In this document: one piece after another, positions 21,416 to 25,729 of the stretch
How the letters are laid out: each line of letters begins with the position of its first letter
How positions within the stretch are numbered: position 1 is the stretch's first letter
NCBI GenBank assembly: GCA_963710375.1
Contig: CAVPZX010000002.1
Coordinates: forward strand, 576,001-640,000
DNA from: Nitrospirota bacterium
GTDB taxonomy: Bacteria; Nitrospirota; Thermodesulfovibrionia; Thermodesulfovibrionales; Dissulfurispiraceae
Length of the DNA: 64,000 bases
Direction: 5' to 3'
The notes under the pieces: model-generated
Seen by the model: only the letters and a program-made list of their open reading frames with translations
Told to the model about the DNA's origin: nothing
Databases searched by the model: none
Program-made: the position numbers and the translations under genes

Positions 21416-22660
21416 ATGGCGACAAAATTCAAACATATTGACGAACCTGATGTGCCAATCCCGGTCAGGCAGCTGGTCATTGGAACCAGAATGCCCTGTA
21501 ATGTATTTGTAAGAGAAAAAGAAGCTCTAAGGGTCTTCTTTAACAAGGACGACCTCTACACCACAGTGTCAGACAATATCTTGAGAGAAAAAGGCGCTTC
21601 CGAAGTCTTCATACATCAGAGCGACAGCATGTACTTCGACTTGTACCTTGCCGGTAACCGTTCACTAAATAGGGTCAGAAATGCCGACAGCGTGGCTGCA
21701 TTCAAAGAATATTCTTACCGCAAGGAACAGCACCATCAGATCGATACCACCCTGCTTGTTCCCGGCACAGAGATTAATTTCAGCCTCTTTGTCCTGGATA
21801 AGCTGAATTATTCTCCTGTAGTTGAAGCCTCTGACAATTCTCACGCTGTCATAAGCGAAAACATGCTGAACATAGCCGGTGATGTCGCCATAAATAAATG
21901 TGACGTGCCACGCTACCTTGAATATATTTCTGCGCTTCAGAAGTCCCCTGAATTGCTTGAAGGCAACAAAACTAAAATAAGAGCGTTCGTCCTCAAAGAG
22001 ACATCAAAGGCCATATTGCAGAATTTCCTTGCCGACCCAAAGAGCGGCGAGACCATAAAAGAGGTAAGCGGGCTGGTCAATGATATGATCGATTGCATCA
22101 TGGAGGACAGGGATGCAATATATGCATTGCTGTCCCTGAAAGGATACGATTATTATACCTATACTCACTCAGTCAATGTCGCCGCATTATCCATCGGTTT
22201 GGGCGTCGCAATAAATTTGAACCGGGAAGATACCGAGAAATTGGGGTTGGGCGGCATGTGCCATGACATCGGAAAGAGTCAGATCTCGCACGAAGTATTG
22301 AACAAGCAGGGCAGGCTTAACCCTCTCGAATACAATATCATCAAGAGCCATGTCCTGGAAGGCGAGAAAATAATGCGTGAACATAAAAACTTCCCCTCCG
22401 AGTCGTTCAGTGCCATATTGCAGCACCACGAAAAGCTGTCAGGCAACGGATATCCCTACGGCCTTAGCGGGCATGACTTAAACATCTTCGGAAAAATCGC
22501 TGCTATCGCCGATTGCTATGATGCCTTGACAACACGGCGTCCTTACAAAACAGCTTACACACCGTTTCATGCCCTTTCGATTATTTCCAAAGATACAGGC
22601 GACTACGATCCCGACCTGTTGAAAGCTTTTATAAAGATGTTGGGCAAGATACACCTCTAA
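21416..22660 (+). CDS. HD-GYP domain protein (putative c-di-GMP phosphodiesterase)
   Basis: YTYTHSVNV, HDIGK, HHEKLSGNGYPYG and IADCYDALTTRRPYK motifs are all intact. Confidence 0.92.
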   Translation: MATKFKHIDEPDVPIPVRQLVIGTRMPCNVFVREKEALRVFFNKDDLYTTVSDNILREKGASEVFIHQSDSMYFDLYLAGNRSLNRVRNADSVAAFKEYSYRKEQHHQIDTTLLVPGTEINFSLFVLDKLNYSPVVEASDNSHAVISENMLNIAGDVAINKCDVPRYLEYISALQKSPELLEGNKTKIRAFVLKETSKAILQNFLADPKSGETIKEVSGLVNDMIDCIMEDRDAIYALLSLKGYDYYTYTHSVNVAALSIGLGVAINLNREDTEKLGLGGMCHDIGKSQISHEVLNKQGRLNPLEYNIIKSHVLEGEKIMREHKNFPSESFSAILQHHEKLSGNGYPYGLSGHDLNIFGKIAAIADCYDALTTRRPYKTAYTPFHALSIISKDTGDYDPDLLKAFIKMLGKIHL

Positions 22661-22756
22661 GGGCTCGCGGATAAATCAATTTGTTAAAAAAGAAATTATC
22701 AGGCAATCGGTCAGCAATTTTTTCTATGATCAGATGCTAAAAAAAGGAGGAATAAC

Positions 22757-22868
22757 GTGATACTCGATGATGTCAGGAAGATATCGAGGCAGAAAGGTGT
22801 GAAGACTGCTAAACATGAAGAAGGGTCAAATCATCAGGGCAATCCAGATGTCCGGAGGCTATCAATGA
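22757..22868 (+). pseudogene. Short Rho-N/SAP-like ORF with a +1 indel, overlapping the FNT start (ATGA)
   Basis: AAAGGAGG RBS. Removing one A at 22811-22813 gives MILDDVRKISRQKGVKTANMKKGQIIRAIQMSGGYQ*, resembling the MKKxELIRAIQ motif. Confidence 0.55.
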
Positions 22869-24226
22869 GCGAACAGTCTGATACGAACACGTGTTTTGCC
22901 CCCATAAATCCGGCGGCATCTTCTGTTGACAATCTTTTGCCTCCAGCAATAGCTCTGAAGGCCGAAAACGTTGGAGTTTTAAAGGCCAACCTCGACTTGT
23001 TTACGCTCCTGACGTTATCTATTCTTGCTGGGGCATTTATATCCTTGGGCTCGATTTTTTTTACTGCGGTAGTGGCTGGAAACGGAGTTGGCGGGTCTCT
23101 TAAACTACCTGTCGGCATTTTAAGGTTAGCGGGTGGGACTGTCTTCAGCCTTGGCCTGATTTTGGTGGTTATAGCAGGAGCCGAGCTTTTTACAGGCAAC
23201 ATCCTGATTATCATGGCTGCAGCCAGTAAAAAAATATCCATCAGGCTTGTGGCAAGAAATTGGGGGATGGCTTACGTCGGCAACATGATCGGCGCCATTG
23301 CAACGGCTTATCTGGTATTTGCCAGCGGCCATTACAAGTTAGCGGATGGCATCATAGGACTGCAAGCATTGGCAATCGCCAGCGCCAAATGCAAGATGCC
23401 CTTTATGGAGGCACTCATCAGTGGGATTTACTGTAACGCTCTGGTCTGCCTTGCCGTTTGGCTCTGCCTTTCCGGTCGTACGGTCATAGACAAAATCGGC
23501 AGTATAATCTTTCCCATCGCCGCTTTCGTCACCATAGGATTTGAGCACTGCGTGGCAAACATGTACTTCATTCCCACCGGTATCTTTATCAAAAACTACG
23601 CTGAACCAGGATTTTGGATAAAGACCGGCAATATTGCCGGCAATTTAGGAAGCTCCTATGAATCTCTTACGTGGAGTAATTTTTTTGTCGCAAACCTCCT
23701 GCCGGTGTCGCTCGGCAATATAATAGGCGGGCTCATGGTCGGACTTATGTACTGGATAATCTACAACCGTCCAAATACTTTAAACTTCGATAACCAAATG
23801 GAATTATTGAAAAAACTTATAGTTGTCGGCAGAAGGAAACACATTCGGTATACGGCGGAAGGGCATGTCACATTACACTCCGATTCGTGTTTTGCCAGGG
23901 GAAAGCTCTTCAATATAAGCGAAGGCGGTTTGTTATGTGCCATTAACAAGCAGGAGACCTACCTTCCCTGCAAGTTGGAGAAGATAATGTGCGATATAGA
24001 AAGTAACATGGAGGCGGGTACGACAATCACGGACCACAAACCTGATAAAATAAAGATTTCAGGCATTAATGCCCTTGTGGTCAACCTCGGCTCGGAAATG
24101 TTCAGTCAAATGACACTGGTATGGGTTTCGATTAAATTTATCAACCTCACACAGGAAAAGAAGAAGGAAATACTGGACTTTATTAAGGCGATACCCGACA
24201 AGGACAAACAAAACGGAAAAAACTAG
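22865..24226 (+). CDS. Formate/nitrite transporter (FNT) fused to a C-terminal PilZ domain
   Basis: FNT motifs GAELFTGN, CNALVCLAVW, GFEHCVANMY, GNIIGG. The C-terminal ~130 aa carry RRKHIR and NISEGG and end SIKFINLTQEKKKEILDFI. GGAGG precedes ATG 22865. Confidence 0.88.
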   Translation: MSEQSDTNTCFAPINPAASSVDNLLPPAIALKAENVGVLKANLDLFTLLTLSILAGAFISLGSIFFTAVVAGNGVGGSLKLPVGILRLAGGTVFSLGLILVVIAGAELFTGNILIIMAAASKKISIRLVARNWGMAYVGNMIGAIATAYLVFASGHYKLADGIIGLQALAIASAKCKMPFMEALISGIYCNALVCLAVWLCLSGRTVIDKIGSIIFPIAAFVTIGFEHCVANMYFIPTGIFIKNYAEPGFWIKTGNIAGNLGSSYESLTWSNFFVANLLPVSLGNIIGGLMVGLMYWIIYNRPNTLNFDNQMELLKKLIVVGRRKHIRYTAEGHVTLHSDSCFARGKLFNISEGGLLCAINKQETYLPCKLEKIMCDIESNMEAGTTITDHKPDKIKISGINALVVNLGSEMFSQMTLVWVSIKFINLTQEKKKEILDFIKAIPDKDKQNGKN

Positions 24227-24317
24227 CCGCAAATAAATAACTTCCACATTGATGCATCCCTCCCGCCTGCCGGAGTTTTCGAGAAAACCGAAACAGCGAT
24301 TCCGGTATAATAAAGGC

Positions 24318-24821
24318 ATGCAACCATCCAGTCATAAAACAAATCCATCCAGGTATATTACCCCTGAGGGTCGAACACAATTAAGCGAGGAACTCTCATA
24401 CCTCTGGAAGGTAAAGCGCCCTCAGGTCACACAGGCAGTGGCCGAAGCCGCAGCCATGGGGGACCGTTCAGAGAACGCCGAGTATATTTACGGAAAGAAG
24501 CAGTTAAGGCAGATCGATTCCCGCATCAGGTTTCTCGCAAAGAGGATGAGCGAATTGATGGTCGTGAACAGGCCGCCTGATGATACGTCAAAAGTATTTT
24601 TCGGCGCCTGGGTCGAACTTGAGGATTCCGATGGGAACCTGTTCCGGTATCGCATCGTCGGTGCGGACGAATTCGATCTCAAAAAGGGTTTTATCAGCAT
24701 TGATTCTCCCATGGCAAAGGCGTTGTTGCGCAAAACCGAGGGGGAAGAAGTTGTGGTGAGCAGACCCCACGGTACTGAAGCCTTTGTGGTGACATCAATC
24801 CGCTATGAAATACAAAAGTGA
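24318..24821 (+). CDS. greB: Transcription elongation factor GreB
   Basis: YITPEG, AAAMGDRSENAEYIYGKK and ISIDSPMAKALL motifs. Confidence 0.93.
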   Translation: MQPSSHKTNPSRYITPEGRTQLSEELSYLWKVKRPQVTQAVAEAAAMGDRSENAEYIYGKKQLRQIDSRIRFLAKRMSELMVVNRPPDDTSKVFFGAWVELEDSDGNLFRYRIVGADEFDLKKGFISIDSPMAKALLRKTEGEEVVVSRPHGTEAFVVTSIRYEIQK

Positions 24822-24876
24822 GGGAAGACTCCGGTGCATTCACTTGCCGGTTGCGAGATTTGGGGTATACTTTTAT

Positions 24877-25729
24877 ATGACGAAGCGAATAGTTATCAGA
24901 TTGTTGCCAATCTTTGCGCTGATGATTTTCTTATTCCCTGCGGCAGCAGGCGGTCATGAAGATAATGCCTCAGGAAATGCCGGAATTGTCGAGAGGACGG
25001 GTCAGAGTGTCCCGCTCGACCTGAACTTTCTTGATGAAGACGGTCGTATGGTCACGTTGCGCGAGTTGGTTACCAAACCCACTATACTTACACCCGTCTA
25101 TTATTCATGCAGCGACGAGCTGTCCGCTGATGCTGGGAGCACTGGCTTCCGTAATGGGAGAAGTCAAGCTTGAGCCCGGCAAGGATTATAAAGTAGTGAC
25201 GATCAGCATAGACAAAAACGATACGCCCGCAATCGCAAAGAGAAACAAGGGCAATTACATCAGGGCAAGCGGAGTTGCATTCCCGGCTGATGCCTGGCGA
25301 TTTCTAACAGGCGGAGAAGATAACATCAGCAGGCTCACCAAGGCCTTGGGTTTTAGTTATCGGCAGGAGTCCGGCACCAGAGCGGCTGGACCCGGCTCAC
25401 AAAAGGAATCTCAAGGGTTCGTCCATCCCACGGTGCTGATCTTTCTGGCGCCTGACGGCAAGATAATCAGGTACATCTATTATGGGCAATCACACTACGC
25501 ATCGCTCTCGCATGCTTCCTTTTCACCTGCGGATTTGACATTGGCACTCACCGATGCTGCACAAGGGAAAGTTCGGGCCGGTTCGATAAATCCTATACTC
25601 CTATGCTTCCCCGGCATATCCAGGAAGCAGGAAATATTCTATACACTGTTGTCGATAGTCGGTGTCTTAACGCTTCTTTGTGTAGCGGTCTTTTTTATTT
25701 ACCTGAGGAAGTCCGGAGGCCATCAGTAG
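24877..25729 (+). CDS. SCO1/SenC family protein; +1 frameshift at about 25117-25120 inside the CxxxC motif
   Basis: Signal peptide, PVYYSCSD[x]CPLML, WRFLTG, FVHPT and a C-terminal TM helix, spread over ORFs 24805-25173 and 25031-25729. Confidence 0.8.

Follow-up and report, generated by a model that had tools for sequence, protein, structure and literature searches.

The window analysed here is a stretch of 64,000 nucleotides from a Nitrospirota bacterium of the family Dissulfurispiraceae (GenBank assembly GCA_963710375.1, contig CAVPZX010000002.1, positions 576,001 to 640,000). On its forward strand, which carries all features described below, lies a gene in which a FocA-like channel of the FNT family is followed by a C-terminal PilZ domain. 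The fusion is real, conserved and apparently undescribed, with both parts of known kinds and only their combination new. We predict that the PilZ tail binds cyclic diguanosine monophosphate (c-di-GMP) and thereby modulates the passage of formate, a proposal whose chances we hold to be evenly balanced. A broader version, which we put forward a little more tentatively, is that the protein forms a pentamer with five PilZ domains, a c-di-GMP-gated small-anion channel coupling the motile-sessile messenger to formate exchange, and that its tail, captured once from a protein combining a receiver domain (REC) with PilZ, spread among Nitrospirota, a Desulfobacterota-type magnetotactic lineage and methanotrophs, in the last of which it is being rewired to another input.

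The fusion gene (22865..24226, +) encodes 453 residues from an ATG, and an alternative GTG at 22757 would give 489. From either start through 24226 the frame is single and free of stops, which confirms the in-frame continuation from FNT into PilZ described in the original prediction for this stretch. Shine-Dalgarno-like runs precede both starts (AGGAGG at 22745-22750 before the GTG, GGAGG at 22854-22858 before the ATG); we favour the ATG because of the lengths of homologous sequences and number the residues of the protein (P0001) from it. The two starts, lying within 22745-22867, could yield forms that differ by a basic N-terminal extension of 36 residues. The junction between the two domains is bridged by independent contigs of sequencing runs X4 (23635-23858, one difference) and X5 (23679-24315, no differences). 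A contig of run X1, which may itself be the source of the window DNA, covers the whole stretch, and run X3, the sole run from a second study, has a gap of 13 bases just before the junction (23746-23758). A fusion artefact was ruled out by the bridging contigs together with the recurrence of the fusion in the family search. The fusion gene is the only FNT gene found in the host genome, which is 98.8% complete.

The FNT domain (residues 29-298; 22949..23758, +) is complete, with the conserved Thr and His that had been noted earlier. It matches PF01226 with an E value of 2.6e-70 (237 bits against a cut-off of 34.6) and passes TIGR00790 (241.8 against 232.3), and it misses the FocA equivalog cut-offs (TIGR04060, 253 against 290.1; NF008069, 257.6 against 440). 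Among structures in the PDB the channel is closest to FocA (3q7k and 3kcu at about 1e-68, with a range of 1e-66 to 1e-68 for FocA), and other FNT structures match far worse (HSC, 1e-19; NirC, 4e-14). In the LFTGN loop (23186..23200, +), T110 is the equivalent of FocA T91, and in the FEHC loop (23540..23551, +), H228 is that of H209; T110, E227 and H228 are invariant in all 36 clusters of the fusion family defined below. Fourteen constriction or salt-bridge positions were compared with FocA (F75, L79, L89, F90, T91, K156, N172, V175, F202, E208, H209, A212, N213 and N262 in FocA numbering), among which we take K156, E208, N213 and N262 to be pore or salt-bridge positions. All 14 residues are present in P0001 and 13 of the positions are invariant in 36/36 clusters, the position of L89 being L or M. 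Behind the last membrane helix follows a cap, Y300-N-R302 (23762..23770, +), which corresponds to the FocA Y-L-R motif and to which the tail is attached; the Tyr is found in all 36 clusters, and the Arg in 33 with His in the other 3. Membership in the FNT family makes it likely that the fusion channel is pentameric. Most of the constriction positions used for this comparison come from the accessible part of PMC5525234.

The substrate is probably formate, judging from the FocA-type match, from the formate dehydrogenases and acetyl-CoA synthase of the host and from the lack of matches to DsrA, NIR_SIR and NrfA in its 98.8% complete genome. Two of the formate dehydrogenase matches begin with an iron-sulfur part and contain an in-frame TGA, and a third has a Tat-like leader. 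Of formate, nitrite and HS-, all named in the original prediction, formate is thus favoured, and a nitrite or sulfide channel is disfavoured by the far weaker NirC and HSC matches and by the same missing enzymes (NirK and cyanase were not searched); cytochrome d1 gave a weak partial match only. Pyruvate formate-lyase (PF02901) has no match in the host genome, nor among the neighbours of the fusion loci that were scanned. One methanotroph fusion locus adjoins aminotransferase and hydroxyacid dehydrogenase genes, which presumably belong to the serine cycle.

The tail begins with a linker helix (residues 311-322; 23795..23830, +), a helix in the models of both the tail and the full-length protein, and continues into a canonical PilZ domain of six strands and a helix (23831..24190, +). 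An AlphaFold2 model of the tail, built from an alignment of 32 rows, comprises the linker helix, the six strands and the C-terminal helix with a predicted local distance difference test (pLDDT) score of 82. Foldseek and VIA-align relate this model to PilZ proteins, which bears out the predicted fold: in VIA-align the top match is YcgR (5y6g; Z 13.7, root-mean-square deviation 3.5, 119 aligned), followed by PP4397 (Z 13.4), MotI (12.9), Alg44 (12.0) and BcsA (4p00; 11.4). The best 15 rows (Z 13.7-8.6) are nearly all titled as PilZ proteins or c-di-GMP receptors, the next row falls to Z 7.2, and most of the top matches were solved with c-di-GMP. A search of PDB sequences with the tail profile gave no match, and the PilZ relation there was found by fold search only. 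The Pfam PilZ match (residues 323-394) reaches 20.6 bits in the full-length protein and 24.6 bits in the tail alone, around a cut-off of 22.5 that five homologues exceed (26.7-39.6 bits). Both ligand motifs lie where they had been placed: RxxxR as RKHIR (23834..23848, +; R324 and R328, preceded by R323), intact in 31 of 36 clusters, and [D/N]hSxxG as NISEGG (23912..23929, +), with 21 residues between them, in agreement with the canonical PilZ definition of 10.1101/814665. The predicted (G/S)-I-x-F ending is also there, the last strand reading SIKF before the helix. A cytoplasmic location of the tail agrees with E. coli FocA, both termini of which are cytoplasmic according to the part of PMC5572259 consulted.

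The fusion is not confined to the host. At 90% identity the family comprises 36 clusters, 8 from Nitrospirota, 3 in a deep group that includes one protein from Ca. Magnetomorum sp. HK-1, and 25 of Methylococcaceae type; a search with the tail yielded, beside the window's own, five of these clusters, recorded as proteins of Nitrospirota, Ca. Magnetobacterium and Ca. Magnetominusculus. Within the host's order, an FNT gene is present in 17 of 301 genomes, 8 times as the fusion, and in the host's genus the fusion occurs in 2 of 10 genomes, the other being G386. The second branch came to light in a metagenome scan (3 of 80 loci, named Methyloterricola oryzae, Methylotetracoccus sp. and Methylococcaceae), and 7 of 64 genomes of the methanotroph family reached via pmoB carry a full-length fusion. 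In a profile search with both branches, the 36 fusion clusters (402-489 residues) stand on top and are followed, among the best 120 listed, by ordinary FNTs of about 300 residues. When 50% representatives were searched, a single row of the best 150 (of 6,556) was full-length, and Pfam scans of 30 long matches among those 150 identified CBS and receiver domains and no PilZ; separate FNT-PilZ fusions may still exist on distant FNTs. In trees of the FNT domain a branch with a support of 99 separates the fusions from all other rows. These trees, unrooted as to origin, were a quick IQ-TREE with 25 fusions among 112 rows, from which 38 loci were left out (fusion duplicates and redundant Vibrio, Nitrospira-like and other rows), and a FastTree with 36 among 46 rows. 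The simplest reading of the sequences is a single origin, then transfer between phyla.

Concerning the source of the tail, its nearest sequence relatives are REC-PilZ proteins of about 240 residues from the host's class, one of them in the host itself, and the tail is likely derived from such a protein. A YcgR-type origin was dropped when the sequence relatives turned out to be REC-PilZ proteins. The linker helix is likely a remnant of the last receiver helix of the donor, kept in the fusion, because L314 and K317 match the REC-PilZ rows (L314 aligns with L in 23 of 24, K317 with K or R in 24 of 24). One conserved REC-PilZ protein (L116:6892-7611, on G000:C5, and L114:6401-7120), with canonical motifs and an invariant hairpin, is common in the host's family and is the likely donor. 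Also observed were proteins of 480-590 residues (family f6; L155:2316-3749 and L156-L160) that carry a histidine kinase ATPase domain and, at the C-terminus, a PilZ-like domain akin to that donor; their N-terminus reads as GAF-like and their first PilZ motif is mostly altered.

In the window's lineage the ligand motifs are conserved: among the non-methanotroph clusters RxxxR is intact in 11/11 and [D/N]hSxxG in 10/11. The exception reads xxSEGG, a form reported as binding in PA2989 in the accessible part of 10.1101/2020.02.11.943704. The PilZ part is about 40% identical on average in the 8 Nitrospirota genomes, and only 11 of its 119 positions are invariant there; these include R324, R328, S352 and G355, four of the five motif positions, an enrichment (hypergeometric P 2e-4) whose significance is inflated by kinship. 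The free REC-PilZ family is 48% identical. The ratio of nonsynonymous to synonymous substitution rates (dN/dS) is 0.10-0.34 for the tail, from the 10 of 14 pairs with unsaturated dS (saturated in the other 4), against 0.02-0.17 for the channel. We therefore consider it probable that c-di-GMP binding is ancestral in the fusion family, and predict that the window protein has retained it.

With regard to mechanism, c-di-GMP would bind the tail and order the RxxxR loop onto the barrel, probably in the form of an intercalated dimer because the residue before RxxxR is Arg. The ordered loop would then pull on the linker of 20 residues and its helix and shift the Y-x-R cap, which lies where the pore opens to the cytoplasm, and the shifted cap would change formate flux. 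The tail would in this way stand in for the contact with pyruvate formate-lyase by which E. coli FocA is controlled, and the general pool of c-di-GMP would supply the signal, with no dedicated neighbour. That the ligand relieves inhibition is a guess by analogy with cellulose synthase, only marginally preferred to the opposite direction. In E. coli FocA, removal of R280 abolishes formate uptake with the pentamer intact, and the loss of up to five C-terminal residues is tolerated (PMC5572259, in part). In BcsA, c-di-GMP on the C-terminal PilZ domain moves the gating loop, according to the part of PMC8461298 available.

Several observations weigh against gating by c-di-GMP. The PilZ domain of the window protein is the weakest Pfam match among the six tested, and the full-length model (predicted template-modelling score 0.53, pLDDT below 50 at residues 302-310 and 319-323) does not fix the position of the tail. 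A barrel Arg, occupied here by N407 (24083..24085, +) and presumably facing the ligand, is kept in 24/24 donor proteins and 3/3 deep fusions and lost in 8/8 Nitrospirota fusions, and the D of the second motif is changed to N in 5 of these 8. In genome G386 an in-frame TAA (L083:2677-2750) within the last PilZ strand cuts off half of that strand together with the helix; the sequence downstream of the stop is still recognisable, and the stop is either a real truncation or an assembly error. The methanotroph-type branch keeps RxxxR in 20 of 25 clusters, the second motif in 5 and both in 5, and its tails persist with another invariant motif, [K/R]NLMGR, in 25/25. Thus c-di-GMP binding is not needed throughout the fusion family. 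A predicted complex of c-di-GMP with four tails (residues 296-445) scored 0.00 and counts neither way. In the methanotroph branch, where the hairpin [K/R]NLMGR is fixed as the ligand motifs erode (L198:4230-5498, L295-L301, P0163-P0177, P0190-P0193 and P0195-P0200), the PilZ domain may have been rewired to a new partner or ligand.

Upstream of the fusion lies a gene for an HD-GYP phosphodiesterase (21416..22660, +; HD_5 E value 3.7e-28) that is beside the fusion in this genome only and is not counted in the system. It is co-oriented, as had been described, and its protein has the complete set of motifs (HSVNV, HDIGK, HHE, GYP, ADCYDAL and RRPYK). The gap to the GTG of the fusion is 96 base pairs with no predicted terminator in it, and the scans for promoters and terminators performed close to chance. 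The phosphorelay reported before it exists as genes for a kinase, a receiver and a hybrid kinase; they lie 387 base pairs from the HD-GYP gene, and no link to the HD-GYP protein, which lacks a receiver domain by Pfam scan, is evident. Nor was the neighbouring phosphodiesterase upheld as the controller of the channel: no HD-GYP or GGDEF gene was found by tblastn (EAL was not searched in this way) adjacent to any of 17 other fusion loci, each of 1.9-19 kb and two possibly near-duplicates, where one HD-GYP gene lies about 8.7 kb off and one weak GGDEF-like match about 5 kb off. The HD-GYP family has several copies per genome in the host's genus, and 8 of 10 related loci read gene by gene, including that of the host's 63% paralogue, sit between what we take to be cinA-like and rarA-like genes, with no FNT gene within about 1.5 kb in any of the 10. 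Conserved linkage to HD-GYP or a phosphorelay was rejected on these grounds, and the system is a single fusion gene, not the proposed operon. The host genome has 12 matches to GGDEF, 14 to HD_5 and 8 to PilZ. Fusion neighbours elsewhere vary and include a transhydrogenase (G386), nos accessory genes (G480), SiaABC-like genes (G483) and, in methanotrophs, proA/nadD-like and pmoC genes. All genomes of genus g55 (4/4) have, directly downstream of the fusion, a gene for a chemoreceptor of Cache_3-Cache_2 type (L001:7299-9332, L002:7444-9495, L151 and L152), co-oriented and directly abutting in three, whose product possibly senses the substrate of the channel. Further along the window, an SCO1/SenC-like gene (24805-25729) is apparently split into overlapping frames (24805-25173 and 25031-25729), possibly by a frameshift.

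Two other accounts of the tail were considered. It could be a docking module that, whether or not c-di-GMP takes part, links the channel to a formate dehydrogenase, a C1 enzyme or a chemosensory complex as its partner and does not itself gate the pore. The methanotroph tails suggest this, being under selection at the dN/dS given above with ligand motifs lost and [K/R]NLMGR fixed; many PilZ domains serve as adaptors (10.1101/2020.02.11.943704) and FocA is under the control of a protein partner (PMC5572259), both according to the accessible parts of these sources. In the window's branch, however, the hairpin varies and it is the ligand-binding residues that are invariant, and no partner gene is conserved across the fusion family among the neighbourhoods scanned, so that we judge docking somewhat unlikely. 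Alternatively, the tail could be a decaying passenger of the REC-PilZ fusion on a FocA-like channel of the ordinary, unregulated kind. It changes faster than the channel, with 41% identity in Nitrospirota against 77%, it carries the premature stop in G386 and has lost motifs in several methanotroph sub-branches, and since FocA can do without as many as five of its C-terminal residues, extra sequence might be tolerated. Nevertheless, a tail is present in 36/36 clusters of the clade (one truncated) from three distant groups, its dN/dS is well below 1, its divergence is near that of the free REC-PilZ family, and both Arg residues are invariant in 11/11 non-methanotroph clusters; we regard decay as very unlikely.

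Two further proposals concern the neighbours. If formate or another anion in the channel altered the PilZ tail, the protein could act as a sensor that signals to motility or chemotaxis proteins, as the chemoreceptor gene in g55 might suggest, but that link is limited to one genus and all pore residues fit a working channel, which leaves this the most improbable of the accounts. Compatible with c-di-GMP gating, as an addition to it, is a local module in which the adjacent HD-GYP protein and the upstream phosphorelay set a local c-di-GMP pool. Orientation, the short gap and the lack of a predicted terminator speak for it, the HD-GYP copy is a paralogue outside the usual locus of its family and could have been recruited recently, and adjacency by chance would be expected in about 1% for one locus (14 HD_5 matches in roughly 3,000 estimated genes). 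Against this stand the 0/17 adjacency at other loci, the 12-17 HD-GYP-like genes per genome in each of five relatives tested and the missing receiver domain that could connect the phosphorelay, and we find such a module quite unlikely.

The predicted c-di-GMP-gated channel resembles several known systems in part. It shares with FocA (E. coli 3KCU, Salmonella 3Q7K, V. cholerae 3KLY) the best PDB matches, the constriction residues and the Y-x-R cap, but falls below the FocA equivalog cut-offs, occurs in a host without a pyruvate formate-lyase match and has a PilZ tail of 150 residues in place of the five residues of FocA. BcsA is likewise a membrane protein ending in a PilZ domain, which the tail model matches, but it works as polymerase and translocase and has its gate at the active site, whereas the effector of the fusion would be a small-anion channel. 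The REC-PilZ proteins share the invariant R324, R328, G346, S352, G354 and G355 and the helix aligned with the linker, but are soluble and have D in the second motif and, in 24/24, the barrel Arg that is missing from the window's fusion branch. Nucleotide-gated ion transporters, such as potassium transporters with cyclic diadenosine monophosphate on RCK domains and channels gated by cyclic nucleoside monophosphates, also control ion flux by a second messenger on a cytoplasmic domain, but their folds are unrelated, they carry cations and not formate, and they have no PilZ domain. The targets of known PilZ effectors are motors, polysaccharide synthases, transcription and signalling enzymes, and a metabolite channel bearing a PilZ domain did not turn up in our literature searches.

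A table in the available part of the receptor review PMC10519070 includes an RCK-domain protein regulating ion transport and no PilZ-tailed channel of this kind. The words "channel", "transporter" and "formate" do not occur in the accessible text of Galperin and Chou (10.1101/814665) or of the PilZ network study 10.1101/2020.02.11.943704, nor do "fused" and "CBS" in that of the FNT survey PMC5525234. No description of an FNT-PilZ fusion was found in our full-text searches, and supplementary architecture tables or subscription papers could list one. Public records carry both Pfam matches under the sole name of formate/nitrite transporters.

Attached regulators on FNT channels recur across lineages, apparently as an unstudied theme. 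FNT proteins with C-terminal CBS domains are widespread in Vibrio and occur in other lineages (L045:5962-7413, many Vibrio loci, P0018, P0021, P0051, P0078, P0088-P0090 and P0131), and these are candidate nucleotide-regulated channels for which the literature searches returned no paper. Receiver domains are joined to FNT (L035:5569-6846, L048, L054, L066, L069 and L076) at the N-terminus in Desulfobacterota and Myxococcota records and at the C-terminus in P0014, probably two separate fusions. Like the PilZ fusion, both types attach a cytoplasmic signalling domain to an FNT channel, but they differ in ligand or signal and belong to separate FNT clades, and no characterisation of either was found in the literature searched. 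In addition, anammox-type planctomycete records (L027, L028, L030, L043 and L044) contain two adjacent FocA-like genes from different sub-branches, possibly forming a hetero-oligomer.

The family contains natural variants with intact and with lost motifs, which are built-in controls; the P0174 cluster with WP_052808364.1 of Methyloterricola oryzae is a methanotroph case of the first kind and P0197 one of the second, and P0202 and P0204 are deep-branch members with the barrel Arg. If the tail does gate the pore, a small ligand working through the C-terminal cap would give a handle on how FNT channels are gated, and direct control of a central one-carbon flux, and hence of formate cross-feeding, would fall to c-di-GMP in bacteria of sediments and soils.

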